DNA of 40,523 bases. Origin: Craspedostauros australis (taxonomy: Eukaryota). The notes below the pieces were generated by a model. That model did not search any database. It saw only the letters and a list, made by a program, of their open reading frames with translations, and was not told where the DNA came from. The stretch is from assembly GCA_030167865.1 (NCBI GenBank), contig JALAGF010002876.1, positions 1-40,523 on the forward strand, given 5' to 3'. Positions within the stretch are counted from its first letter, which is position 1. Every line of letters begins with the position of its first letter. Below, one piece after another: positions 335 through 40,350 of the stretch. The position numbers were made by a program, and so were the translations under genes.

Positions 335-996
335 AGAATAGGTACCTTCATGACCTCCTAACCCATCCAATATACGTTTTAAGAATGTAGTTCTTCTACA
401 TATATCTAAAGGAAGTATATGGTAAGGCCTCTTAAAGTTTATATCAGGATCGCAGATGCGACGCCGACTTTGGTGTACTATTTTGGCTCAGGCGGGTCAT
501 AAGTACGCACACAGTCAAAACCACAACAGCACAACTCACTTCCCAGCGGAGCATCTGTTCTGACACCATTCCCGGTTCCTGGAGCCGTTATCCATGATTC
601 AGAATAGATCTGTCTACCAAATCTTGAAATGGGACACGCTTGGTTTGCGCAATGACTGTTTCTGACAAGCGTTAATCAATAACCGTAATTCATTATATTG
701 TATTTAGCCCTGAGAATACATCATGAACACATCCAAAACGGAGCACCTCTCACATTTTTGCAAGCGCCAAACCACCACGTTACCAACTCGTTGTCACGGA
801 ACACGTGCCAACCACCGACTCCGACATTACCAACATCGACATCACCAACATCAACATCACCAACCTCTCAGCATCTCCTGGCACATTCTCGGTATCTCCT
901 ACAAAGCACAAAACAGCAGCAACAACAAGAACCACCAAGATGCCACCTTCGCAGCATGGAGTCAATCAGCAACACAAACCAACGTTGGCAATCATC

Positions 997-3900
997 ATGT
1001 TGAAGATATCTCTGATCGTCGCGACGGCAAGTGCAGCGGCAAGTGCACCGTCATTGCAATCCCACGCATATGAAGAGACAATGGATCTGAATGTGGATCT
1101 GCATCGAGAGCAATACGTTGATCCATCCTTTATTCAGAAACAACAACAACAGCAGCAGCAGCAGCAGCAGCAGCAAAAGCAACTGAGGCAATCATTCAAT
1201 GGCCTCATGGCGCAGGAACAACTAGATGGCGACGATACCGATGCCCATTTGGACAACCTCCTCAACGACTTTTCTTGCGACGTCTTCCGTGATGGCTGCG
1301 CATCCGCGCGCAATGGAATCTGCGATTCGCAGCACGGCAAGCCAGGACTTTCCCCATCCGACACCTGCTACGATGCCGACTGCCTCGATTGCGACGATTT
1401 CTGCAGACAGTACCAAGGAGATTGCACGGGGTGCCTGGACAACGGATGCAATTGGTGCCCAACCGACGGAACCTGCTTCAATTCACCGTACTACTTGTTC
1501 CGTAGCACAATCTCGACGTGCGAAGCTCCAGACTACGTGTCGTTGAAGGCATCGTTGGCATCGGGAAGCACAGAAACGGCACACGAAATGTGCCAATCAT
1601 CGTTCAACCCTGCGTTCGACGATCCACTCTACGATGCGCAGAAATGGATATGGGACATGATCAACATCAGAAGCGTGTGGGACCAGGGCTACACAGGAAG
1701 CGGCATCCATGTGCGGGTCAACGACAACGGTGTTCAGTCCACCTTGGACGAATTCGCAGGACGTTTCGACACGGCGTCATCCTGCGAGGAATACCTGCCG
1801 TCTCCCATCGACACATCGTCATATCAATCTCACGGAACCAGGGTGGCATCCATCCTCGCGGCAAGTGGCAACAACGCCAAATGCGGCACCGGCGTCGCAC
1901 CTGGCGCGACTCTGTCCGCGTGCAATTTGGTACAAGAGGACAACCCCCGAATATTGGAGGTGGGCGACGGGACGTACCTGTCATTGAACCTTGACAGCTT
2001 GGATATCTCACAGAATTCTTACGGCAGCCCCGCCTGCCGTGTCGTGTTGGATCAGGTTGCCGACAGCGACAATAACAGCGACAGCAACAAAGGCTCTCGC
2101 TGGTTGTCCGAGGATGCACCAGGATACAGCATCAATGCCAGGCACTTGCAACAGTGTCCCTTCACGTACCGTCCAAATTCTGGTTCTGGAAGCGGCAACA
2201 CTGTGGCGACTTCTTTCCCATGCGACATCTGCGATTTCATGTCGTCGCCAAGGGATGATGGCAACTGTCGCGATGCCATCACCCGTCATTGCTCCAGGTA
2301 CTACAAGGAAGATCAGGTCGGTTGCGTCGAGTTTCTGGATTTGCGCCTCAACGATGGAGTTTGCAGGTACAACAGCCTTCTGCCATCTCAAAGCAGTGGT
2401 CTCATCGAGGGCATCACGCGGGGCAGAGACGGCAAGGGCGTCCTCTACGTCTTTTCGGCAGGCAACAACTTCGAGGCCGGCGCCAACGTCAACGCGCAAG
2501 GCTTCACGAACACACGATTCACCATCACCGTCGGCGCGGTTGGTAGGTCCGGCCAGCATGCGTCGTATTCCACACCCGGCGCAGCGCTGCTTGTGTCGGC
2601 ACCCGGTGGAGACGGCGATTATATGGGAAATATGGTGACAACCGGCATCGACGGCTCCTGTGCCATCAACGGACTCGGGACATCGTTCTCCGCACCGGTT
2701 GTATCGGGCGTGCTTGCTCTGGTGCTGGAGGCAAACCCTGAACTGACATGGCGCGACGTGCAGGGCATCCTGGCACAAACGTCCGACCCCGTGTTTGCCA
2801 CAGACGGTTTTGATGAATTTGACAATGATTGGGTGAAGAACACAGCCGGAGTGCACCACTCGTACTACTACGGCTTCGGCATTGTTGACGCGGCCAAGGC
2901 GGTTGCCGCTGCGAAAACGTGGACGCCGTACGCGCCTGAGGACATCGTGGTCGGAGAATCCGGGGTGCTGAATGTGCCAATCCCAGACGATAGCACAGCT
3001 CCCGTGCAATCCAGCATCATGCTGCCTTCATCGTCCGATGGTGCGCTGTCACAAACTACTGGTCCGGTCACCCAGTTGCATCATTTCTACACCGAATCGG
3101 TGGGAGTGTACATCCACATCGACCACCCATCACGTGGAGATCTGGATATCAAGCTCACATCTCCAACCGGAGTCGAGTCCATCTTGCACCCTGGCAACAG
3201 GCCAGAGACCAGGTCGGCCGAAGATTGGAAGTTCCTCACCATGCGCAACTGGGGCGAATCTCCCATTGGCGAATGGAAGCTCACAGTGGCGGACATTTCG
3301 AAGGGAGTTGTGGGAGACGAAGACGCCACGAATGACGGGTCGGAGATATTGGTGGAGTGGGAAATCATCGTCTACGGCCGATTCGACATCCCGCCCACGT
3401 CCGGGCCAACCTCCAGCCCCACACGAGCCACGTCGTCGCCGACGATCACCACTGCATCGCCCACTCTTGAGACGCATGCACCAAGCATGGCTAGTGCTAT
3501 GCCGACGATGGAGACGGACACACCCACCCAGTCTTCGCCTGCCCCAACCATCACAACGTCGGCTCCCACTCTGAGATCAGACGTTCCCACAATCGAAACG
3601 GATTCGCCAACTCTGGCGTCGAATGCACCAACAATGGAGTCGAACCTACCAACCGTAGTCACTGCATCCCCGACCCAGCAATCCAGTGCTCCGAGTGCCC
3701 GAAGCGCCTCTCCAACCGAACAATCAAGCGCGCCTTCCAAACAAACTGACGCACCCACGATGGCAACAGGCCAGCCAACAGCCCAGCCGTCGGCATTGCC
3801 AAGCGGACCGACCGGTGCACCAACCATGATTCCGTCGCAAGCACCATCAGGAACTTCCTCGCCGACATCGAAGGCATCATCGACGCCAACTGTTGTACCA

Positions 3901-4410
3901 ACATCCCAACCAACTGCAACACCCACACAGCAACCAAGCGCCCTGCCGACGTCGCAACCAACCGTGATGCCGACGGCCCAGCCTTCCGTATCCCCTTCTG
4001 CGCCTCCAACTTTGCGACCGACAACGAAAAGTCAATCGGTATCTCCCACCGTCGTCAATTCGGCTCGTCCTTCGTCGATCCCAACCTCGTCTCCAACAAT
4101 GACGCAAAATCAAGAGACGGCCACGCCAACCGGACAACCGACGTCAACGCCAACGATCAATGCATCGATGGCGCCAACCACACAAGAACCAACGGTCCCG
4201 ATAACCACATCTTCGGCGACTGATGATGGCAACGCTGCCACGCTTGCACCTACATCCACGCCAATGGAATCCAACACGGAATCAAGCGATGACGGCGTTG
4301 ACAATCCGTTCTTGCAACGCAAGAGCGGTGGTGCCACATCGGCGCGTGCTGCAACGTCGATGGGACTGATCCTGCTGTTGACATCCATCCTTGGCTTTCA
4401 CTCGCTCTAA
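997..4410 (+). CDS. Subtilisin/kexin-like (S8) proprotein-convertase-like serine protease with P-domain, Cys-rich N-terminus, Pro/Thr/Ser-rich stalk and GPI-like C-terminal signal; single exon
   Basis: Catalytic Asp in VRVNDNG (1723), His in SHGTRVA (1831), oxyanion Asn in AGN (2464), Ser in GTSFSAP (2683). NPELTWRDVQ and YGFG motifs; P-domain with RGDL (3133). ATG 997 gives a signal-peptide-like MLKISLIVATASAAASA. An alternative ATG is at 940; the ORF-track start at 805 is GTG. Confidence 0.92.
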   Translation: MLKISLIVATASAAASAPSLQSHAYEETMDLNVDLHREQYVDPSFIQKQQQQQQQQQQQQKQLRQSFNGLMAQEQLDGDDTDAHLDNLLNDFSCDVFRDGCASARNGICDSQHGKPGLSPSDTCYDADCLDCDDFCRQYQGDCTGCLDNGCNWCPTDGTCFNSPYYLFRSTISTCEAPDYVSLKASLASGSTETAHEMCQSSFNPAFDDPLYDAQKWIWDMINIRSVWDQGYTGSGIHVRVNDNGVQSTLDEFAGRFDTASSCEEYLPSPIDTSSYQSHGTRVASILAASGNNAKCGTGVAPGATLSACNLVQEDNPRILEVGDGTYLSLNLDSLDISQNSYGSPACRVVLDQVADSDNNSDSNKGSRWLSEDAPGYSINARHLQQCPFTYRPNSGSGSGNTVATSFPCDICDFMSSPRDDGNCRDAITRHCSRYYKEDQVGCVEFLDLRLNDGVCRYNSLLPSQSSGLIEGITRGRDGKGVLYVFSAGNNFEAGANVNAQGFTNTRFTITVGAVGRSGQHASYSTPGAALLVSAPGGDGDYMGNMVTTGIDGSCAINGLGTSFSAPVVSGVLALVLEANPELTWRDVQGILAQTSDPVFATDGFDEFDNDWVKNTAGVHHSYYYGFGIVDAAKAVAAAKTWTPYAPEDIVVGESGVLNVPIPDDSTAPVQSSIMLPSSSDGALSQTTGPVTQLHHFYTESVGVYIHIDHPSRGDLDIKLTSPTGVESILHPGNRPETRSAEDWKFLTMRNWGESPIGEWKLTVADISKGVVGDEDATNDGSEILVEWEIIVYGRFDIPPTSGPTSSPTRATSSPTITTASPTLETHAPSMASAMPTMETDTPTQSSPAPTITTSAPTLRSDVPTIETDSPTLASNAPTMESNLPTVVTASPTQQSSAPSARSASPTEQSSAPSKQTDAPTMATGQPTAQPSALPSGPTGAPTMIPSQAPSGTSSPTSKASSTPTVVPTSQPTATPTQQPSALPTSQPTVMPTAQPSVSPSAPPTLRPTTKSQSVSPTVVNSARPSSIPTSSPTMTQNQETATPTGQPTSTPTINASMAPTTQEPTVPITTSSATDDGNAATLAPTSTPMESNTESSDDGVDNPFLQRKSGGATSARAATSMGLILLLTSILGFHSL
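1141..1176 (+). repeat. CAA/CAG trinucleotide tract encoding Q12 in the protease N-terminus
   Basis: (caa)3(cag)8caa seen directly. Confidence 0.95.
3391..4270 (+). repeat. Coding Pro-Thr/Ser periodic repeat (mucin-like stalk) of the protease
   Basis: PT/PS dipeptides recur every 7 aa (e.g. SPTLETHAPSMASAMPTMETDTPTQ) and then every 4 aa (PTSQPTATPTQQPSALPTSQ). Confidence 0.85.
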
Positions 4411-4942
4411 CATAAGATAGTGTGACGTTTTGGAATAGAAGAGCAAGGAGTCACCCAACGTACCTACGGAGCGGAGTTACGATGATGTCGAGTACTCTCC
4501 GTGGAACACGAATACACTGGAACTCCGCAAATAGGACATTCCTCCACTGCGCAACATGTCTACCAGCACATGAAGCAATGCGATCCAACGACGTATTCAC
4601 AGCATAGAAGTCTGCGCAGCGTTTGTGGAATTATTTGCAGTATTATGTTAATACTATTACGGTTTGTTCATGTCATCGATTATGCGCACCCGTATATCAC
4701 CAGTGCTCTGCAGTCGCCAAGCATATGCTTTTTGCAAAGAGTGCTGCATATCTTTCAGTAGTATGTTGTATGTACGAGCCGTGGAAGAAATAGTGCAGCC
4801 GCAGAGAAACTGGTGGAGGGAGCAATTCGTCTGCTCTCCCCAGCCTTCCCAGCACATGCACTATTCCGCTCTGCCATGTTATCAGTCTGCACCACTCCAT
4901 ACCATGCCATGCCATACCCTGCACACACGCAGATTCTCTGCT

Positions 4943-6495
4943 CTAGTCTGCCTTGACCCCCCTCTTCTTGAGCTTGTTGATGTACTTCTGATCGGACTTG
5001 GGCAGCTTCTTGATTTCCTGCTCTTCGATCCATTCCAGCAGATTCTCCTTGACCCAGAGCTTGCGCGCGACCATCGCCTTGCGATCATCATCGGACGCCA
5101 AATCCCACGCCACATGTCCCACGGCCCGCTCGGTGAGGACGTCCTTCTCTTCGTCGTTGAGATCCTTCTTCTGCATCCGCCGCACGACGTAGCTGGCCTG
5201 CCATATGGCGCCCTGCGCGAGCGTGATGGGGAGGTTGACCATGCGCACGGCGAAGAGGTCCTTCCAGGTCGGCTTGTGAAATCCGGCACCGAAATCCTCG
5301 ATATCGTTGACGTAGCCGGCGATGATGGGTCTGAGGAGGGCGTTCTGCTGCTCCTTGCGTTCCTTGCCCGTGAGCTTGCTGCCGCCCTTTGACTTTTTCT
5401 GATTCTTTGTGGACTTGGAGGTGCCGTTGGATGATTGCTTGTCCGACTGCTGATCTTTCTGCTGCTGCTGTTGCAGTTCCGCCATGGCGCGTTCCCTGAG
5501 CTCCTTGGATTCGGGCGATCCGCCCTGGCTGGGCGTCCAGTCCTCCACGGCGGCCTTGACGAGACGGTCTGCGACCATCTGCCAGCGGTGTTTCTGAGCC
5601 ATCCAGGTGAAGAAATTGACTGCGGCAAAGAGGACGATGAGGATGAACGTGGCGTCGGACTTGGGTGCGTAGGCCCAGAGGACGTCGGCACCGTATTTCT
5701 GGAAGTAGGCCTCCTGGTTGTATCGCATGAAATCATACTCCTTGCGCTTCTCCTTGTTCGTGAGCACTTCGTAAGCGCGTGCGATTTTCTGCAGAACGAC
5801 AGAGCAAAGCAGAATACGAATGTCATTGTGCAGGAGTGCATTTGTTTGATTGATTGATTTTTTGTTTGGAAAGAAGGATGGAAGAAATGGAATGGTGAGA
5901 CCTCATGTTGAAAGAGAGAGAAGATGAATTGTAACAACATGACTTTGACATCGACTCCTTCCGGCATCGCGGCTTGCATGAATCTCGCAACTGGACAGTA
6001 GGTCGTACATCTCAGCCAAGCCCAGCCCAGCGCAGTACAGCATAGTCGCAAAGCAGATAATCCATGAAATGCAAAAGAGAGATGCAGCACAACGACGATG
6101 AATGGACTCACAACAAAGCGGTCCTTGGCGTTCTTGTGCTTGGACTTGTCCGGATGCCACGCCCTCGACAAGGCACGGTACCGCTTGGTGATGACCTTGG
6201 TGTCGGGGATCTTGGAGCCGAAGGATTCGAAGTCGAAGCCGAGGATCCGGTAGCAATCGAAGTGGCCGCAGAAGATGTTCTTGGGATCGTAGTAGTTGCC
6301 CCAATCGGTGTGGGTGTGCACGTCGAAATTGTCGACGTCCGGCGTCTTCTGCTTTGGTTTGTTGGCGTCTTCAGTCGGGGATGCCGTTGTGGTGGAGTCC
6401 GCCTTGGGTGCCGCGTCCTCCTGCGCCATCGCAGACGGCGTTGCGATGGACAGCACCGAAAGGAACAGGACGGAGAGCGGAGCAATGACCTTCAT
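4943..6495 (-). CDS. DNAJC25: DnaJ/Hsp40 J-domain membrane protein, DNAJC25-like (409 aa); exons 6495-6112 and 5788-4943
   Basis: Signal peptide MKVIAPLSVLFLSVLSIA. J-domain FCGHFDCYRILG...WHPDK...DRFV|KIARAYEVL is restored by a 323-nt GTGAGT...TGCAG intron (6111-5789). It is followed by APKSD plus a TM helix, as I recall for DNAJC25. Spliced length is a multiple of 3. Confidence 0.85.
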
Positions 6496-9331: not shown

Positions 9332-10576
9332 TCATCGCGTGGCAACCCCCGTGAGTTGCGGATTGGCACGTGAAGCGGCCGCGGCCGACAACTGCGCCGC
9401 CCTCGCCGACATGGCCGCATTGGCAGCCGCCGAAGTCGTGACGGTGGTGCAGATGGAGGAGGCCGAAACGCGACGTGGCTTGCTGGGGATGATGAGATGG
9501 CGACGTTGCGTGAGAAATCCCATCCACACAGCCCAATGATCGCGGCGCGCGTAGGCAAAGGGCGTGTGACCGCGCACGTCGCTGAGACCCAACAGCTGCG
9601 GCGCCTCCTGCATGAGGAAGTCCATGAGGTCGAGGTTGGGCTTGACGGTCCAGCAGGCATCGTGGGCCGGCGTGCGGCCGTAGTCGTCGCGCACGAAGAG
9701 TGAGACGCCGGCCTCCTGGACGAGGAACTTGACGATGTCCGTGAGTCCGTTGCGGCAGGCCATGTGGATGAGCGATTCGCCGAAGCGGTTGCAGCACTGC
9801 AGCTGTTTGCCCTGCTGGTGCAGGTCGCGCAGCATCTGCAGGTTCTTGTGGCGCACGGCGCTCAAGATGTCCTTGTCGTAGGCTTCGATCATGGCGGCTG
9901 TGGGTTCGACGAAGTAGGCCTGATCTCGTGCCGGCTGTATCGCGAGGCCGCTGTCGGAGTACATCTTTGAGATGAAGAGGGAAGGACTCTGGGGAGCCGG
10001 TGGGGGTGGTGCCAGCGGTGTTGTGCGTGACGTTCGCTTGGCCATGGTCGACGTCATCGTTTGAGACCGTGTGGGTTGCGACCGTGGCCGTTGCTGAGTC
10101 TGGAGAGGCATAGAAGACGGAGTGATGGATGCGGCCGACGACGATGTCGACCAAGCAGACGAGAATGATGAAGCAGAGGACGATGAAGCGTACGTCGTTT
10201 CTGCGAACTTGCGCTTCTGTGTGCTCAATGCGATTCCAACGCCCCCCGTCATGGCTGGGTTGGTCATTGCCGTAGTTGTGGCTGTCAAGGGCACGGTCAT
10301 GTGAGAAGTCACAGGAACCGCAGGTATCCTGACGCCCCTTGGCGCGATGACGACGGTCGGTGCTGGTGCGATCGGCACATTGCGATCAGTGTTAACATTG
10401 ATGCTGACATTGGCATTGCCATTCGAGTGAACATGCATGTTGGCTGCTGCCGCTATGGCTGCCGCAGTTGCCGCAGATGTTGCGTGTGCTTGTATTGAGG
10501 TGGCATGTGCTGAAGCTTGGGTCGGTCCTGAAGGTAGAGCCTTCGTCGGGCTTGGCGCGTGAGGCATTGCTGTCAT
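9332..10576 (-). CDS. Ankyrin-repeat protein with low-complexity Ala/Thr/Ser N-terminus (414 aa)
   Basis: Ankyrin-like motifs NRFGESLIHMAC, DDYGRTPAHDAC, DVRGHTPFAY. First ATG is at 10576 (ORF-track start 10657 is TTG). Confidence 0.85.
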   Translation of the reverse strand: MTAMPHAPSPTKALPSGPTQASAHATSIQAHATSAATAAAIAAAANMHVHSNGNANVSINVNTDRNVPIAPAPTVVIAPRGVRIPAVPVTSHMTVPLTATTTAMTNPAMTGGVGIALSTQKRKFAETTYASSSSASSFSSAWSTSSSAASITPSSMPLQTQQRPRSQPTRSQTMTSTMAKRTSRTTPLAPPPPAPQSPSLFISKMYSDSGLAIQPARDQAYFVEPTAAMIEAYDKDILSAVRHKNLQMLRDLHQQGKQLQCCNRFGESLIHMACRNGLTDIVKFLVQEAGVSLFVRDDYGRTPAHDACWTVKPNLDLMDFLMQEAPQLLGLSDVRGHTPFAYARRDHWAVWMGFLTQRRHLIIPSKPRRVSASSICTTVTTSAAANAAMSARAAQLSAAAASRANPQLTGVATR

Positions 10577-14218: not shown

Positions 14219-15394
14219 ATGATTGCGCGCACCACAATCACAATCGCAACCGCCTCAGTAAACACATCAACATCAATCGCTTCGTTCCCGTTCTTGGTGG
14301 CCCTCTTGATCTTCCAAATGAGCGTCGTCGATTCTAGAATGCCCACAATTCTGGTCACCGGTGGCAACGGTGGCATCGGATTGGGTACGTCCCTTCGCTC
14401 CTTGTCCACGATGATAGTTCATTGTTCATGTTCGTGATGGTGTCTGTTTTCGTTGTCAAGGGCCACCCACGATTCGCATGGCTTCCACGTACATTGTCGT
14501 GCGTGCAAACATCCTTCAACGATGGCATTGCCATTCTCACAGCATTCCCTCTCTCTCTCTCTCTCTACTTCGTCTTCTTCTTCCATTTTCCGATTCATTT
14601 CCACCCCCGCAGCCCTCTGCAAGCAACTCGTCCAGGAAGACGGCGCCAAGGTGCTGCTGGGAGCCAGAAATCGGGAACGCGGCGCGGCTGCTGTGCAAGC
14701 AGTCAAGGAGCATTGCGGATCCGACAGCGCCGCGATCGAACATGTGCTGCTGGATGTCGCCGACGACGATTCGGTCCGGACGGCGGTCGCATCGCTGACC
14801 AAAAAGGGCATCCGGATCGATGCCATCGTCAACAACGCCGCCTGCGGATACGCGGAGGGCACGGATCCAGCCGAGATCATCAACACCAATCTCATGGGCC
14901 ACAAGCGCGTTGTGGAGAATTGCATGCCGCTGTTTGTGGAGGAAGGAGCGCGTATTATCAATGTCGGATCCGGATTCGGACCCGGGTACGTGAAGGAGCA
15001 GTCGATGGAATGGCAGAAGATCCTGTGTTCGCCCGACGTGACGTGGCAGCAGATTGAGCAAATTCGCGATGGGCCGCTCGTCGACCCAAAGACCACCTAC
15101 CGCATGTGCAAGGCCTTGCTTGCGAGCTATACCTTGTATTGTGCCAAGAAGTATCCCCGCATCATGAGCTTCTGCATCACGCCAGGGAAGGTGGATACGC
15201 CGAAGGCCAAAGGATACGACGGTGCCAAGAAACCATCGCAAGGAACTGTCTCCATTCGACATTGTTTATTCAAGGCCGAGAAGGAGCAGAGCGGGTGGTA
15301 CTTTGGTTCGGATGCTCAGCGAAGCCCGCTCCACTTCCTGCGCAACCCTGGAGAGCCGGCCTTCGACGGTGTGTACCCGTGGGAGGAAACTTGA
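14219..15394 (+). CDS. Short-chain dehydrogenase/reductase, paralogue 2; exons 14219-14384 and 14613-15394
   Basis: TGGNGGIGL|ALCKQL joined by a GTACGT...GCAG intron (228 nt). NNAA, NVGS, YRMCK. Start uncertain (ATGs at 14219, 14318, 14339). Confidence 0.9.
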
Positions 15395-18857: not shown

Positions 18858-21028
18858 TTAAACGATGCTGTCAACGTTATCGCGCTTCGGCGGAGACCCC
18901 CTTGACCTCAGCTCCGAAAATCGATGGCCCGTCACGCTGTTCCGTCGTCTTGCGTTACTGCTGCTGCTGGTCGCATCGACGGCGTTGGACGTCCCCAGTT
19001 CTTCGCTGGAATCCCGCAGCAGGCTGGAGACCTTGCGGAACGACTTTTGCTTGTTGCGTTCTGCTTTGTGATAGGAAAAGGAGAGGAATCCACCGACGCT
19101 CACCGCAATGCCGAGGATCCCGACCCACGTCAGCGTGACATGGAAGATGATGGACGTGATAACGATGGCGAAGATTCGTCGCAGGCAATTGAGTGCCGCG
19201 TGATGCACCACGGTGATTCTGGAAAGCAAGTATGTTGATGCCAAGCTGTAGTCGTGTCGTTCCGTTGTCATGGGTGTCAACGTGGGTATTAGTAGAGTGG
19301 AGCAAATGAGAGAGGCAGGGATGTCGGTATCAGAGAGTGCAGCATGGTCGCGATGACCCAAGTCTCTAGAGTTGGCCAATCAAGCTGTTCACATCCACAC
19401 AAAGCACGCTCCGCCGCACCACACCACACCACCCATCCCATCACACCATAGCATAGCACACCATAGCACACCATAGCACACCACTCACTTGTAACTCGTA
19501 AAGGCCGCGCCGTTGACGATCGCCAACCCGGCATATCGCGCCATCGTCTGAAACGCAGTGGTCGTATCCAGATAGATCCACATATTGCGCATGTGCCCTG
19601 CAATGGGCAACAGCTCCATGACCACAAAGAAGGGCAGGATGCAGCAAACTCCAATCTGTTGCATGCGGTATTGCAGATTCCAGTCGTCCACTTTGGTGAC
19701 GGCGCCAGCACGCCATAACTTTTGGAAGAGGCCGCGGAAGGAGAAACAGAGATTGGCCGTCATGACGATGACGCAGGCGTGGATAGATGTGGAGATTCCC
19801 GATGATGATGTTGTTGTTGTTGCCGTCTTGGTGTTGCCAACGGTGGAGAGAATGACACCAACCACGATGCTAGCCAAGGATGAGACTTCCGGCGAAGATA
19901 GCTGTTCGATGCCCCATGACACAGCCAAGGCGGCTGACGTGATTGGTTCTGCCGCCTTGATGGTCTCCACAAAGGATGCGGATGTCCCGGAGAAGGCCAT
20001 GTTGGTGGTCCAAAAGCCGACAGCGAAGCAAATCGCAGCACCAAAGAGCTGAACCAAACGGGCATGGCGCACATCCGCCTTGCGATCCCCAGTGAGCCAA
20101 ACCAAGAGGGGTCGGAAGATAGCCGATGCGTTGCTGCGATGATTTGGAATCGAGCGGGATCGAATGGAATGTCGTGCATGGTGCGAGTAGAGTCGAAGAC
20201 GCAGCACGAACGCAGCCATTGGTTAGTTGTGGCAATTATCAATGCAACGAAGGTGCCACAGCAGTGGCTTACACACTCTGCAGTACAGCGTTGGTCTCCA
20301 CATCCACAGTACCAAATGAATACTTGTTTTGATTCGCACGACGCCAACACGCATCGGCACATATATGCGAAAGTCCCATTCGCATGGACGCAACACCACC
20401 CTCACCTCCTGGGCCGTTCCGGCTTATGATCCGAGACATGCCGAATCTCCGGCGTGACCCCCAACCCGGTCCACGGCAGAACGCCACCGCGACGCTGCAC
20501 GATCGTCCCCAGCAATGTGCTGCCCAACAGCAGCTGCTGTATCGTCAAGGTCGTCGGCGAGATGCCGCCGATGCATTCATGCACGTTGTCGTCGCACGCC
20601 GTCAGCAGAAGCTTGGATGTGGCGATGCTGAGAACACCCAGCGTGTACCACAGGGCGACGGCGATGATGAGGGCGGGCTGCAGGAACAGGATCGTGTCGG
20701 ATTTCTTGCGACGCAGCGTTCGCGATGTCGCATGGCCGTTGGATGCATTCCTGCGCCGGCGTGATGTGTATTCATGCGATGGGATGAGATTGGGACGCGC
20801 CTCGTCGATGGATCGCTGGTAGTCCCGAATGTCTGACTGGGAAGCGTAGTAGGGAACGATGGCATCGGGATTGCCGCTCACGTGGGCGGAAGCGCTGGGC
20901 AGAGGTGCTGCGGCATGTCCATTGCTACTATCATTGCTGTTGTCATTGCCATTGCCATTGCCATGGTCATTGACATGATGGTGCGAAGATTGGCTGCCAT
21001 TGTGCACCTTCGCACTCGTGGACGGCAT
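18858..21028 (-). CDS. Triose-phosphate-translocator / SLC35E-family (DMT) transporter (551 aa); exons 21028-20406, 20133-19489, 19245-18858
   Basis: Family motifs LWY...SK.LL, SASFVETIKAAEP, ANLCFSFRGLFQK, FTSY|NLASTYLL...LNCLRRIFAI. Multiple TM helices. Two canonical GTGAG...CAG introns keep the frame. Confidence 0.88.
19442..19483. repeat. Intronic 10-bp tandem repeat (CCATAGCACA) next to the 5' splice site of transporter intron 2
   Basis: cacaccatagcatagcacaccatagcacaccatagcacacca seen directly. Confidence 0.75.
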
Positions 21029-28052: not shown

Positions 28053-30216
28053 TCAAACGATATGGTCTTCGACGCTGTGCATCTTGGAAGCGGACAGCCG
28101 AAACTCGGGACGCTTGCCCTGCTCTCCCGCGATCGGCAATGGCAGATACTCGGGCTGCCGCGTGGATGGCAGCAGCACGGCAAGAAAGGGATTGAGACGC
28201 GATCCAAACACCTGCTGCCAATTGCGACGCGCGCCCAACGAGTACGGGTTGATCCATTTGCGCTTGGCCTTGCGCGCCTTGCGAGCCGACATCCAGTTGC
28301 CATGAAATTCGATCGTGGTCTGCGCCGTGAGGGTCAGGTACAGGTGGAACCCACCGAGAAAGGCGACGGCGATGCCCACCGCGAGACAGATCATGAATGC
28401 CAGTGAGATCGGCATCTTTTCGCGTGGGAACGGGACCATGGAATCGGCATGCATGCGTTCCCAGTGTCCCGTCCGACGGAATTGATCCACCTGGCTGCGG
28501 TAGAGTGGACCTGAGGTATTGACAAACGGAACGTACGTGATACAGACTCCGTACATCATTCCCGTATGCACCAGCCACAGGAACGTACAAAAGTAGCGGT
28601 AGTTGAAGTAACCGACTGCGACGATCGTGGTTGTTGGTTGGTTTGTTCCATGTTGGCAAGGGGGACGATAGAACGTAGCAATGTCAGATTTGAAAACTCA
28701 TGTGGTGGGCGACGCAGTGGAGAGCGCGACCGTGGTACAGCGGCGACAGCACCGAGAATAGCACCACAAGTGATAAAGTGATATGTTCCGCACCTCTGTT
28801 CGATGCGCAGATAGCCATAACACGCCCCACATTTTTCACCCATCGCACAATCATCGCTGGCGTCCAACTCTCACTCTCATTTGCTTCCAAGCAAACAGGC
28901 ACGGTGTGGGACTTACTCGCGTTGAACATCCACGGACAGTAATGATCCAGGTTGAGAATGAGCGATTGCGACACGTGATCATAATGCGACCTCGGTGGCT
29001 TGGGTTGCTTGGAACGATTGCACCAACTCCATTCATCCGGCGCTAATATCATCCAACTTCGAATCTGCTTGGGCGTTGCCTGTACTTGCTGTGGCTGCGG
29101 TTGTCTTTGTGGTTTCGCCTTGCTGTTGGCAACCCGCCGTTGCGCCACACCACCTTGCACCACATTGCCCTGCACCACACCAGCCTCCGCAGTACCACGT
29201 TGCGGAGCACCACCCAACTCCACATCGTCCGCCATACGCGCCGCATCTTGCACGGCCGCGGCGGAGATGGGCATCTTGCTCTGCAACGTGCTGTTGATCT
29301 GCTTGGCAAGCTGCGTGTTGCGCTGCAGGATGGCGTTGGTACGGGCCTGTTGCAGATGCTGACGTCGCTGGCGTTGCACGGCACCGGGATTGGCCTTTTC
29401 GTGCCGCCTCTGAAAGCGAATGCGCAGTTTGTGTTCGACGTCGAGCCGGAACTCGGTCTCTTCGTCGGGTGACTGCGGGAAGTAGACGCCTTGCGTGTGC
29501 GCCAATTCCCTTACGACCTTCTCGTACTTGGTGCCGCCGTTGCTCGTCATGACGCACATGAAGTAATTGAAGGCGATGTTGGTGAGGAAGTAGCAGACGA
29601 TGAGGATGTGGCCCATGATGATCCAATCGCCCGTCGTCGCATTCTCCGCGAAGATGTTGGGGATCAGGGTCGCGTGCGTGTTTGCAGGTGCACTGTCGAT
29701 GGCGTTGCCCAGCAGAGAAGAATCCGACCCTGCTGATGACCCTGTTGATGACCCTGATGATGGAGATAGGAGCTGCTGCAGTCCCAGGAACATTGAGGAC
29801 AAGAATGACGAGAGGCCACCTTGGCCATTATCCGCATCCACCTGTCCAACCGAACCTGGCAGCACCTCGTGAGGATACTTCTGCTCGTAGTAGCGATGCA
29901 TCATCGGCAGGATGATGGTGAAGAAGGTGTAGCCAAGGCCGCTGAGGATGGCAAGCGCGAAGCAGATGAGGATGGGTCCCAGGATGTAGACGATCTTCTC
30001 CACGAACGTGGTGCATGCCATGAGCGCGCAATCCGCCAGGTTGGCGAAGGTGCATTGGAAGGTGCGTCTGCCTGGTCCCTTCTTTGGGAGGCACCACAGG
30101 GAGAACCTGCGCCGTCGTGACGAGGCATCCGCCGATGCTTGTGATGGCGCTGATCCTGATGCTGGAGCTTGTGATGAACCATTGCGGGCACCGGTTCTTG
30201 CTGCCGATCTTGCCAT
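28053..30216 (-). CDS. DHHC-family protein S-acyltransferase, DHYC variant (620 aa); exons 30216-28917 and 28615-28053
   Basis: KPPRSHY...LDHYCPWMFNA|IGYFNYRYF is restored by a GTAAGT...GCAG intron (301 nt). Four TM helices, QTTIE (TTxE motif), NPYSLG..RNWQQVFG (PaCCT-like). Confidence 0.92.
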
Positions 30217-34357: not shown

Positions 34358-36542
34358 ATGGCCGGGATGAACACAATGAGCACCGCCAAGATGATCGCGT
34401 TGCTGGCTCTGTCGAGTCTGTCGCTCTCATCGGCTCTGTCCTACAATTACATCACGGCGGTGTCCACGATGTCCATCGCAACTTTGGCATCAACGACGGC
34501 CGCATTTTCGTTTCCCGCAAATCCAGTTGCGACAGCTGGAGTCAGCTCTGCCTCGCGGGTGTCCGGCAACGCCAGACCACAGCAGCAGAGGCAGCAACAA
34601 CAACAACAAGAGCTGCAGCAAAGGCCACTGCTGTCCCTCCAACTCGCGGCGACCGCGACAACAGCAGAAACAGCACAGGCGTCCTTGCCGTCCGTGCCAT
34701 TGAAGTCCATTTCGAACACGCAGACTGCGTTCTATGATGGCTCCGAATGGGAATCCATCCAGCACCTGCTGCACCAGCAGAGCAAGCTCGCCGACCAATC
34801 CCCAACGGAGTGCGGCCAGCTGCAGCTGGTTGCGGGCACCATCTGGAACGAGACCACCAACCAGGAGGAGTCCGTCGTCGGCATTCTCGCATCGGCCGCG
34901 GCCGACCAGCACATTTACGTCGACTCCATCGTCATGCCTGCTGGTCGCAACGCCAACAAGGAACCCAGCAAGCAGCTCATCGAGGATTGCATGGCGACCT
35001 ACACCCTCGCTCTTTCCACCGTGCACTGCGTCATGCCGCAGCTCGATGATATTGGCGGTTCGTCATCCGCAGCCTCCTTCCCCATCGCCGGCAGCAAGAT
35101 CGTGGTGGCGGGCGGATCGGCGGTGGCGCAGTTTGCGGCCAACGGATTGTCGGCCATGGGGATGGACGTCTTCCTCGTCACGACGGATTCTGAAGACAAG
35201 ATTCAAAAGAATTTGCGTGAGAATGGTGCGTGCGTGCATGTGTCACCATTGTTTTATCATCTGTTGCAGGGGCTTGCTTGTTTGTGTTTGGTTATGAGTA
35301 CATGTGTAGGGTCACTAACTAAACGTTTTGTTCGCGTCCCATGCGTGCCTCAATTGTGTGCCAATCGCATTGCAATGCACAGTCAAGGTAATGCAACCGG
35401 CGCAAGAGAAGGAAGATTCTGACATTGATGAGGACGATGATGAGGACGACGATGACGAAGATTTTCTTGATGATGATGACGATGACATTGGCTTCTGCGA
35501 AGCCATTGGCAATTTCGATGCATTCTTGGACACAGCCAACGATGAACGAGGACCCCTCAACCCGAGAAGCCCGCAGCCATTCAAACATCTGTCATCCACC
35601 GTCACGACGCTTCTCAAGGAGCGCCACAACTGCCATGTATACGTCTCCACCAGGACCAAGTCACAGGAGCTGCTGGCCGACAACGGCGTTTTCTGGGGAC
35701 CTGGCAAGGCCAAGGACTACGTCAAGACCATCACCAACAAGCAGAAATCATCGCGGGCCACCAACGTCCTTCCGCCAAACGGGATCGGCGCCACGATCCA
35801 GACCCTCATCGACAACAACGTCGTTATCACGGCCAAGCAGAAATACAAGGAGTGCCATGCCAACGCCAACAATGACCTCGTGCGCGGATTCGCCTGGTCC
35901 GATTTTTGGGAGGACACCACGTGGCCTCGCGACACGTCGGGATCGGGCACCACGCGTTACGGATTGCCCGTGCGGTTGTCAGAGATTGATCTGGCGGATG
36001 AGACGGCACTAGTGGAGGCAAAGACCCAATCCAGCAATCCCGGTGCGCGCCCAGAGTTCGTCTTCTCCGATGCTCCGGCATCATCGTTATCCGCGTCGGG
36101 AGCCACCGAATCGCAGACAGTCAGCCTGCCAAAGACGTCGTCGTCGTCCGCATCCGACAATCCCTACGTCCTCCAGATCAGCAACGGCATGGACGGCATC
36201 GAAGCCGATATCGTGCAGCAGGATCGCACGTGCGCGATCTTCATGAGCGCCAGGTTTTGCAAGAAGTGCAAGCAGATGAGTCCCCAGTACACACGCATGG
36301 CGCGAACCAACACCAATGACGATCTCATGTTTGCCAAGGCCGAGGCGTCCGGTCCGGCCGGAAAGCTCATGGGCCGGCAGCTCAGCGTGGAGGCGGTCCC
36401 GGCCTTCGTCTTCTACCGTCATGGCCAGAGGTACGGCACGCCCATGATGATCTCCAAGTTGCCGTCCACCCAGTTGGATCGCGCATTGGAGCTGCTTTCG
36501 TCCGGGAAGGAATGGGATCATGAATACATATTTACGGAGTAA
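34358..36542 (+). CDS. Putative plastid-targeted protein with Rossmann/MDR-like central region and C-terminal thioredoxin domain (CKKC) (675 aa); exons 34358-35225 and 35383-36542
   Basis: Hydrophobic N-terminus, then TTAAF-SFP and a Ser/Ala/Arg-rich transit-like stretch. KIVVAGGSAVAQFAANGL resembles a Rossmann strand-helix. A GTGCGT...ACAG intron (157 nt) joins the two ORFs in frame. Trx fold AIFMSARFCKKCKQMSPQY...VEAVPAFVFY. Confidence 0.8.
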
Positions 36543-40177: not shown

Positions 40178-40350
40178 NNNNNNNNNNNNNNNNNNNNNNN
40201 NNNNNNNNNNNNNNNNNNNNNNNNNNNNNNNNNNNNNNNNNNNNNNNNNNNNNNNNNNNNNNNNNNNNNNNNNNNNNNNNNNNNNNNNNNNNNNNNNNNN
40301 NNNNNNNNNNNNNNNNNNNNNNNNNNNNNNNNNNNNNNNNNNNNNNNNNN
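40178..40350. other. Assembly gap (173 N)
   Basis: Run of N seen directly. Confidence 0.99.

Follow-up and report, generated by a model that had tools for sequence, protein, structure and literature searches.

The window, a stretch of 40,523 nucleotides from Craspedostauros australis (contig JALAGF010002876.1, assembly GCA_030167865.1), contains close to its start a real protease gene. The gene is intron-free and consists of a single uninterrupted open reading frame that encodes 1156 amino acids plus a stop codon, and the enclosing frame (805..4410, + strand) is open throughout. A second possible start is the ATG at position 997, at which the putative signal peptide begins directly. The domain order is a signal peptide, a PSI-like Cys-rich domain, an S8 catalytic domain, a P-domain with RGDL, a Ser/Thr/Pro stalk and a GPI-like hydrophobic end, and residues 230–800 align unbroken to homologues. 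The gene and its domains are located as follows:

940..4410, + strand: whole gene, a single open ORF, 1156 amino acids from the ATG at 940
997..1047, + strand: putative signal peptide MLKISLIVATASAAASA, read by eye (hydrophobic core and A-x-A end)
1276..1593, + strand: N-terminal Cys-rich PSI (plexin-repeat)-like domain, residues 113–218 (Pfam PSI, sub-threshold)
1618..2919, + strand: kexin-type S8 catalytic domain, residues 227–660 (Pfam, phmmer against the PDB, AF2 model, Foldseek)
2941..3384, + strand: P-domain, residues 668–815, with R732-G-D-L735 at nt 3133–3144 (Pfam, furin alignment, model)
3385..4269, + strand: mucin-like stalk, rich in Ser/Thr/Pro (58%), residues 816–1110 (composition; Pfam PT repeat below cut-off)
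4360..4407, + strand: terminal hydrophobic stretch MGLILLLTSILGF plus HSL, with small residues ahead (GPI-anchor-signal-like, read by eye)

The N-terminal Cys-rich block matched PSI with an E-value of 0.0023 and 18.7 bits, versus a Pfam cut-off of 23.1 bits, and it was modeled by AF2 with pLDDT 82–91 and little secondary structure; the homologue P0041 has PF01437. This block occupies the location of the kexin pro-domain. No match to the S8 pro-domain (PF16470) or to Inhibitor_I9 was obtained for the query in Pfam, even at E<=10, and several complete homologues in the 80-row alignment pass from the signal peptide directly to the catalytic domain, such as two proteins of Cylindrotheca, in which 29 and 36 residues precede it. 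At the other end, the C-terminus resembles a GPI-anchor signal and may serve as one. A terminal hydrophobic tail was found in 77 of 163 family members, and 29 have a transmembrane segment together with a tail. A secreted or cell-surface location fits the predicted signal peptide, the stalk and the tail of the query.

By sequence as well as by fold, the protein is closer to furin and Kex2 than to other subtilases. Pfam returned Peptidase_S8 at 4.6e-32 and P_proprotein (PF01483) at 1.4e-17, and phmmer searches against the PDB gave 1.1e-53 for furin and 2.9e-49 for Kex2, versus about 1e-12 for subtilisins. The AF2 model (pLDDT 80.4, pTM 0.82) shows residues 668–815 as a beta-sandwich directly after the catalytic domain, and with this model Foldseek found furin with an E-value of 7.9e-40 and a target TM of 0.89, and Kex2 with a target TM of 0.85–0.87, both domains being covered. 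Residues were mapped with a HMMER alignment to furin, a phmmer alignment of the family, and a MAFFT alignment with the fungal kexin P0335 and three canonical bacterial relatives. The original prediction of an intact Asp/His/Ser triad with its oxyanion Asn was borne out, with furin D153, H194, N295 and S368 corresponding to D262, H298, N509 and S582. The predicted P-domain is likewise intact, and its RGDL (residues 732–735) lies beyond the interval 1711–2700 that had been highlighted, which is bounded precisely by the VRVNDNG motif on one side and by GTSFSAP on the other. The catalytic and pocket positions are these:

1723..1728, + strand: catalytic Asp262, then Asn263 (furin D153-D154; DDG to DNG), from alignments
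1831..1833, + strand: catalytic His298, from alignments; Tyr295, three residues ahead, corresponds to furin D191
2017..2034, + strand: S1 pocket wall S360-Y-G-S-P-A365 (furin S253-W-G-P-E-D258), from alignments, the last three positions by adjacency only
2464..2466, + strand: oxyanion-hole Asn509, from alignments
2485..2505, + strand: N516-V-N-A-Q-G-F522, in which Gln520 corresponds to furin D306 at the bottom of S1 and Phe522 to Y308 (high HMMER posterior)
2683..2685, + strand: catalytic Ser582 in GTSFSAP, from alignments

For furin, we take D154, D191, D258 and D306 to be acidic S1/S2 residues, E236 and D264 to belong to the S4 region, and D258, D301 and E331 to be the ligands of the Ca site at the pocket; these residue numbers and subsite roles are assumed, and the numbering offset alone was matched to the PDB chain. 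In the query, furin D154, D191, E257, D258, D301, D306 and E331 are replaced by N263, Y295, P, A365, A515, Q520 and M562. The furin wall W254-G255-P256-E257-D258 becomes Y361-G-S-P-A365 (SYGSPA), and here the equivalence of E257/D258 is given by adjacency only: the alignment breaks one residue on, where the query has 124 residues versus furin's 17. The prediction that the positions of D154, E257/D258 and D306 are non-acidic (N263, P/A365 and Q520) holds with this limit on its middle part. The counterpart of D264 disappears within the insert of the query, and two acidic residues assigned to S4/S5, D233 (E340) and E236 (D343), are possibly kept, in a stretch that is weakly aligned and has a pLDDT below 50. 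The subsites could therefore still be reached by acidic side chains, either from D343 and E340, if these are retained, or from the loop beside the pocket with its many Asp and Glu. The S1 bottom of the query is the polar Gln520; subtilisins that accept Leu have Gly or Ala at this place (the logic of subtilisin G166).

The query belongs to a large and previously undescribed family of algal paralogues, whose named members so far come from raphid pennate diatoms and pelagophytes. The family, for which 185 members were collected, appears to depart from proprotein convertases in three linked ways: there is no N-terminal pro-domain, a disulphide-rich insert of about 125 residues is present, and the acidic S1/S2 residues of furin are swapped clade by clade. 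At the D306 column, Glu is found in 48 members, Gln in 34, Lys in 24, Asp in 20, Ser in 19, Gly in 14 and Ala in 11 (n=185). The D258 column is acidic in none of the 185, and the full acidic set (D154=D, D258=D/E, D306=D/E) is equally absent from all of them. On a FastTree phylogeny that excluded the pocket and loop columns and used bacterial relatives as an outgroup, the pocket signatures are clade-specific. These comparisons support a convertase lineage with re-wired S1/S2 pockets, as had been proposed for this gene, and the proposal can be extended to the whole family. The family has expanded into many paralogues, which differ in their pockets and in their C-terminal modules. The query itself sits on a long branch (0.72) and has no close orthologue, the top identity being 53%. 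None of the named family matches is from T. pseudonana or Phaeodactylum, most database proteins being nameless. For T. pseudonana, THAPSDRAFT_4922 and THAPSDRAFT_263936 are listed as subtilisin-like serine proteases induced by Si (PMC5501833). A profile search with the alignment gave 39 matches, mostly already known or bacterial, and no further named diatoms, and the ESM Atlas returned generic S8 plus P-domain clusters only. Several very long top matches (P0123, P0171, P0178 and others) were not counted as family, as they are without the loop pattern.

The family-specific insert and the loop that opens it are located as follows:

2035..2409, + strand: Cys-rich insert, residues 366–490, from alignments, with no Pfam family
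2038..2154, + strand: variable, acidic, disordered loop between C366 and C406 (pLDDT <50 at 371–376 and 381–401)

The insert lies between the S-x-G wall and the G-R-x-G-K-G helix and has the pattern C...C-P-F...P-C-x-x-C...C...C...C...C, with near-invariant positions C366, C406-P-F, P427-C428, C431, C443, C451, C462 and C475, so that the query has eight of the eight near-invariant Cys. It is absent from furin, the fungal kexin and the bacterial relatives compared. The idea that the insert is a transposed pro-domain was dropped, given that its ordered part, which is made up of three short helices and contains six Cys, matched no Pfam family.

In the disordered loop, we found a conserved (R)RxLQ motif that matches the RRIL/RRNL-type processing site of diatoms. 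An R.L occurs in 54 of 77 loops, versus 15.6 expected from shuffles, and in a wider set it occurs in 109 of 155 loops versus 32.3 expected, with Gln after the Leu in 75 of the 109. The density of R.LQ is 24.9 per 1000 loop residues versus 0.12 per 1000 in the remainder of these proteins, which is an enrichment of about 200-fold. Arg is also favored at the three positions preceding the Arg of the motif, and the loop motifs are often polybasic. No R.L was found in 46 of the 155 loops, including one entire clade. The copies of the query are R387-W-L389 and R401-H-L-Q404 (nt 2140–2151); taken alone, its three R.L in 1156 residues are within chance, and the signal is one at the family level. Pelagophyte members carry the loop motif as well. 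It occurs with every pocket residue (Glu, Gln, Lys, Asp, Gly and others) and also in the triad-dead members P0031, which has G-F-D-I at the four catalytic positions, and P0048. The proteases therefore look like RXL substrates, and the independence of the motif from pocket and triad suggests that a shared enzyme cuts them in trans. In the parts of the literature available to us, the diatom RXL endopeptidase is defined only by its sites, which are RRIL/RRNL in Sil1p and RXL in frustulins, cingulins, silacidins, Sin1 and SiMat7-like proteins. These sites share their form with the (R)RxL(Q) motif of the family, and the compartment is the same. Cleavage at the loop motif would follow from this likeness, and we regard the family proteases as likely RXL substrates rather than as proven agents.

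With moderate confidence, we favor as the best overall explanation that the locus encodes a catalytically competent serine protease of the kexin/furin fold, which would be secreted and tethered at the cell surface. The signal peptide would direct the enzyme into the secretory pathway, where it may fold without a pro-peptide, stabilized by the conserved Cys of the insert and by the P-domain, and the stalk and GPI-like tail would present it outside the membrane. The loop between C366 and C406 may be cut at its (R)RxLQ by a common protease of RXL type or dibasic type in the secretory pathway, which would yield a two-chain, disulphide-joined enzyme with a freed pocket entrance. With Asn263, Tyr295, Ala365 and Gln520 in place of Asp, the enzyme would not select paired basic residues and may prefer an uncharged or polar P1. 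As a tentative extension, and one for which the chances are modest, the insert-bearing family may contain the diatom RXL endopeptidase and may run as a self- or cross-activating cascade: pro-domain-less members would be blocked by the loop beside the S1 pocket and opened at their own (R)RxLQ, and paralogues with other pockets, such as the Gln520 enzyme, would be downstream effectors with new specificities.

A different role would be that of a broad-specificity, degradative extracellular protease for organic-nitrogen scavenging or for the turnover of mucilage and surface material, in which RxLQ is a structural element that is never cut. The large paralogue expansion with its diverse pockets and varied C-terminal modules would agree with this, as would surface tethering, and a structural role is conceivable for L403 and Q404, which the model places where the loop becomes ordered (block pLDDT 76). 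However, the distance from the motif to C406 is variable and the loops vary strongly in length and composition, which is typical of a linear motif and not of a packed element, and the strong enrichment of the motif also speaks against this reading, which we consider unlikely.

The original prediction had gone further and proposed a candidate non-dibasic processing protease, for example for RXL sites, and possibly a maturase of extracellular or cell-wall proteins. In this reading, the query enzyme itself would trim the precursors of silaffin, silacidin, cingulin and other wall proteins after Leu. The compartment is right, Arg-specific S1 appears to be lost, and the catalytic domain of the family itself contains an RXL-type motif, likely in an activation loop, just as convertases carry their own cleavage motif; D343 and E340 might, as a weak argument, still bind an Arg upstream of P1. 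But the motif does not follow the pocket residue and is retained even where the triad is dead, the polar Gln520 would be a poorer acceptor of Leu than the Gly of other clades (14/185), and a pocket that is unconserved is contrary to what is expected of an essential maturase. Moreover, the query lacks a close orthologue, and the motif is also found in pelagophytes, which have no frustule. There is also no named member from T. pseudonana or Phaeodactylum, which is a weak point because most database proteins are nameless, although for T. pseudonana the processing of RXL sites is on record (PMC5525289). The literature searched yielded no link of diatoms to kexin, proprotein convertase or P-domain, and the RXL endopeptidase is called unknown in PMC5525289, PMC4557024 and PMC5501833, which leaves room for such an enzyme; for the query itself, we judge this role to be distinctly improbable.

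We hold it for similarly doubtful that the query is still a convertase for basic residues, in which D343, E340 and the Asp/Glu-rich loop 367–395 rebuild the Arg subsites. The equivalents of furin D233 and E236 are acidic, many Asp and Glu follow the pocket wall, D154 and an acid at the D306 column are both kept in 32 of 185 members, and the loop motifs are frequently polybasic; yet Asn and Gln stand at D154 and D306, the two positions that align best, the presumed Ca-site ligands D258, D301 and E331 are Ala, Ala and Met, and the Asp/Glu-rich loop is modeled as disordered. A non-functional relic or a non-catalytic binding protein is very improbable, given the intact motifs with all four catalytic residues, the open 3.5-kb ORF and the confident model, even though broken triads do exist in the family (in 6 of 185 members, at least one of the four catalytic residues is changed).

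The favored reading, a competent surface protease of convertase fold, can be set against known systems. The best match in sequence and fold is furin/Kex2 (MEROPS S8B; PDB 1p8j, 4omc, 1r64, 2id4), with which the query shares the order of catalytic domain and RGD(L)-bearing P-domain, the kexin-type motifs around D, H, N and S, and the nature of a secretory-pathway enzyme. Unlike them, it has no pro-domain, and apart from the replaced acidic residues it differs from furin in that eight conserved Cys lie in the 124-residue stretch. It ends in a mucin-like stalk and a GPI-like tail in place of their Cys-rich, transmembrane and cytosolic tail, and its RXL-type motif is inside the catalytic domain, whereas theirs is RXKR at the pro-domain junction. 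Aeromonas sobria ASP (PDB 3hjr; 3wqb) also combines a kexin-like catalytic domain and a P-domain with no covalent pro-peptide, and it matched the query with an E-value of 3.2e-20 (phmmer) and a target TM of 0.66 (Foldseek); however, ASP is bacterial, is without the Cys-rich insert and depends on a separate chaperone gene (ORF2; 3wqb title). The nearest non-algal relatives are bacterial kexin-fold P-domain subtilases (planctomycete, proteobacterial, and cyanobacterial RTX/cadherin-linked), and in contrast to the query, the bacterial P0112, P0115 and P0119 possess a pro-region but no insert, and they keep D154, D301 and D306. S1P/SKI-1 (MBTPS1), a subtilase of the secretory pathway, cleaves at sites that have Leu or another non-basic residue at P1 and an Arg further upstream, and it forms a separate subtilase branch without a P-domain. 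It may resemble the query in function, by a non-basic P1, but the query differs by its P-domain, and no S1P chain is among the PDB matches of the query listed (60 of 93).

To our knowledge, all characterized kexin-fold (S8B) enzymes cut after basic residues and need their pro-domain to fold. The insert-bearing algal family would dispense with both the pro-domain and the basic specificity, so that the convertase scaffold would have been re-tooled in a major algal group. By offering a naturally occurring set of S1 pockets on a common scaffold, the family may also be of use for specificity engineering. Ever since silaffins were first studied, the protease that processes wall and biosilica proteins of diatoms at RXL sites has gone without a name, and it was still given as unknown in reviews and papers from 2015–2017 (PMC5525289, PMC4557024). 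A secretory family with an RXL-type motif in a probable activation loop would now offer concrete candidates, at least as substrates of this protease and possibly as the enzyme.

The whole of the predicted convertase lies within one long open reading frame, whose first ATG opens a protein of 1156 residues (P0002, hereafter the query), whereas the product of the second ATG begins immediately with the signal-peptide-like MLKISLIVATASAAASA. Pfam finds Peptidase_S8 (E = 4.6e-32) and, as originally predicted, a proprotein-convertase P-domain (1.4e-17) with RGDL at residues 732-735. A PT repeat and a Cys-rich PSI-like module in the N-terminal region (E = 0.0023) are matched under their cut-offs.

Features of the protease gene (window positions)
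805..4410 (+): single long ORF
940: first ATG
997: second ATG
1123-1212 (residues 62-91): 13-Gln run in a Gln/Lys-rich stretch, between the putative signal peptide and the PSI-like domain
3372-4388 (-): long ORFs, antisense or out of frame, over the S/T/P-rich stalk, such as one of 184 aa at 3372-3926

The Gln/Lys-rich stretch forms one long helix in the AlphaFold2 model, and its weak Pfam matches (CCD97-like and others) look compositional. The ORFs over the stalk look like by-products of GC-rich, repetitive coding sequence.

A phmmer search of all PDB sequences matched furin at 1.1e-53 and Kex2 at 2.9e-49, followed by the Aeromonas sobria serine protease ASP (3e-20) and subtilisins (about 1e-12). 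The furin alignment is split into two stretches, between which 124 query residues stand against 17 in furin. Residues were mapped in this alignment, in a query-anchored family alignment, and in a MAFFT alignment that adds the fungal kexin P0335 ('pheromone processing endoprotease') together with three bacterial relatives in which the canonical residues are retained. All three gave an identical mapping:

Furin residues and their query counterparts
D153 (catalytic): D262
D154: N263
D191: Y295
H194 (catalytic): H298
W254-G-P-E-D258: Y361-G-S-P-A365
N295 (oxyanion): N509
D301: A515
D306: Q520
Y308: F522
E331: M562
S368 (catalytic): S582

The D/H/S triad and the oxyanion Asn are intact, in agreement with the original prediction. 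The strings DNG, SYGSPA and NVNAQGF, which it had put in place of the acidic pocket residues, are present and correctly placed, with the proviso that furin E257/D258 are matched solely by adjacency to a conserved Gly, because an insert starts one residue later. The pocket roles of the furin residues are taken as general background, the numbering offset being what was checked. Acidic residues may be kept at the furin D233 and E236 positions (query E340 and D343), in a stretch of weak alignment and model pLDDT below 50.

The AlphaFold2 model of residues 1-817, built on an 80-row alignment, has a mean pLDDT of 80.4 and a pTM of 0.82, with pLDDT below 50 at 1-59, 93-101, 336-340, 371-376, 381-401, 416-421 and 792-794. 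The top Foldseek match in the PDB was furin (9fid_A, E 7.9e-40, TM by target 0.89) and the second Kex2 (0.85-0.87), with ASP at 0.66 and subtilisins aligning to the catalytic domain alone; the comparison with furin and Kex2 is one of folds, not side chains. The query is very likely a real kexin-fold protease with an intact active site, and it is probably not dibasic-specific. No pro-domain was matched by Pfam even at E<=10, and in several complete homologues the catalytic domain follows directly on the putative signal peptide.

After the S-x-G pocket wall, the query carries a Cys-rich insert with the near-invariant positions C366, C406-P-F, P427-C428, C431, C443, C451, C462 and C475, which matches no Pfam family and is absent from P0335 and the bacterial relatives in the MAFFT alignment. 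Searched exhaustively, 1.84 billion representatives yielded 2719 proteins of the kexin-like class at large (E<=1e-30), one homology search with the query gave 182 matches, and the insert pattern is found in 185 collected proteins besides the query. The closest named relatives are raphid pennate diatoms with 40-46% identity (Nitzschia sp., Seminavis robusta, Cylindrotheca closterium). Named members come from Nitzschia (three genes, two adjacent on one scaffold), S. robusta (many, annotated 'Furin-like protease 1'), C. closterium, Tryblionella, Pseudo-nitzschia, Bacillariaceae MAGs and the pelagophytes Pelagomonas and Aureococcus, with one entry labeled as a diplonemid transcriptome; expression of members is shown by MMETSP transcripts. 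The diplonemid entry (P0127, labeled Lacrimia lanifica, a non-algal protist) is a close match (E 2.4e-126), and may stem from prey or contamination, or else indicate that the family ranges more widely. The adjacent Nitzschia sp. Nitz4 members (P0003 and P0288, scaffold272, gene models 008307 and 008306) are a sign of tandem duplication. No named Thalassiosira pseudonana or Phaeodactylum protein appeared in the match lists, which is weak evidence of absence, since about a quarter of the database proteins are named and the search used a word index.

Each clade conserves its pocket columns, but from one clade to another they are hypervariable. Among the 185 members, the furin D306 column holds E 48, Q 34, K 24, D 20, S 19, G 14 and A 11; the D154 column D 80, N 32, E 12 and G 10; and the D258 column A 85 and G 37, and never an acidic residue. 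Asp at 154 is combined with acids at both 258 and 306 in 0/185, and 32 keep D154 with an acid at 306. In a FastTree phylogeny rooted on the three bacterial sequences, with pocket and loop columns left out, each clade carries its own pocket signature; the query's own branch is long (0.72), and its sister grouping has weak support. Of 163 members, 77 finish in a hydrophobic tail as the query does, and 29 have a transmembrane segment plus tail, suggesting that most members are tethered. Many homologues in a family alignment (A1) have an extra Cys-rich piece with A-C-C-x-C-G-G-G immediately ahead of the last P-domain strand, which the query lacks.

The window's other ORFs, in which a domain survey found no protease paralogue or second copy, are ordinary eukaryotic genes, several of which look like lone exons of split genes:

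Neighboring ORFs
4882-6495 (-): DnaJ (below cut-off)
9332-10576 (-): ankyrin
14522-15394 (+): short-chain dehydrogenase (SDR)
19485-20219 (-): triose-phosphate transporter (TPT)
28684-30216 (-): DHHC
35391-36542 (+): thioredoxin

Two N runs, at 165-334 (170 bases, about 600 bases upstream of the protease gene) and 40178-40350 (173 bases), are presumably assembly gaps.

The insert begins with a loop between C366 and C406 that is disordered in the model and highly variable in length and composition. Even so, a short motif, (R)(R)R-x-L-Q, is conserved within it, one that had not been part of the original prediction. R.L occurs in 54/77 A1 loops against 15.6 expected from composition-preserving shuffles, and in 109/155 loops of a wider set against 32.3; Gln directly follows the Leu in 75 of these 109, and Arg is favored at each of the three positions before the motif's Arg. 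R.LQ reaches 24.9 per 1000 loop residues, compared with 0.12 per 1000 elsewhere in the same proteins. The signal sits at the family level, as the query's three R.L in 1156 residues (R337-I-L, and in the loop R387-W-L and R401-H-L-Q404) are not significant alone. In sequence, the motif shares the form of the RRIL/RRNL-like (RXL-type) processing sites of diatom wall proteins. Our literature search found no published account of an algal family with such an insert and internal motif.

The protease cutting RXL-type sites is called 'yet unknown' in PMC5525289, and PMC5501833 lists silicon-induced secreted proteases as candidates. Its supplement (Datasets S1 and S2) names T. pseudonana THAPSDRAFT_4922 and THAPSDRAFT_263936 as 'subtilisin-like serine proteases', which fall in silicon starvation and rise by as much as log2 4.7 and 4.0 on re-supply (PMC5501833). 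Since convertases carry their own cleavage motif, the insert-bearing family, whose pocket-side loop contains RRxLQ, is itself a reasonable candidate for RXL specificity. However, the motif is present whatever the D306-column residue (E 38/48, Q 27/34, K 18/24, D 16/20, G 12/14), and it is kept in P0031 and P0048, family members with replaced catalytic residues; both findings agree with a single shared protease acting in trans. In other protists, it is an ER aspartic protease that processes RxL-type export motifs, and an unrelated protease is therefore a serious rival. Such a trans-cutting enzyme could also be an active paralogue, or one of the 32 members that combine D154 with an acid at 306, which would cut behind the Arg pair. 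Catalytic residues are replaced in P0031, P0048, P0125, P0095, P0055 and P0312, with all four changed in P0031 (G, F, D, I), which represents a cluster of 10 sequences; as several retain the RxL(Q) motif, we call them probable pseudo-proteases.

In fold and predicted working, the query resembles S8B convertases, but it departs from them in two hallmarks, having neither a pro-domain nor acidic pockets; a kexin-like enzyme without a covalent pro-peptide is known in Aeromonas ASP (title of 3wqb). On balance, we lean towards a secreted serine protease of kexin fold, probably tethered to the surface by a GPI anchor, that would fold without a pro-peptide and no longer select paired basic residues. 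A cut at the RxLQ loop would probably open the enzyme into a disulfide-held, two-chain active form. Other clades of the family have Gly at the D306 column, similar to subtilisin with its open, hydrophobic S1, and would by this analogy be better acceptors of Leu than the Gln520 enzyme of C. australis.
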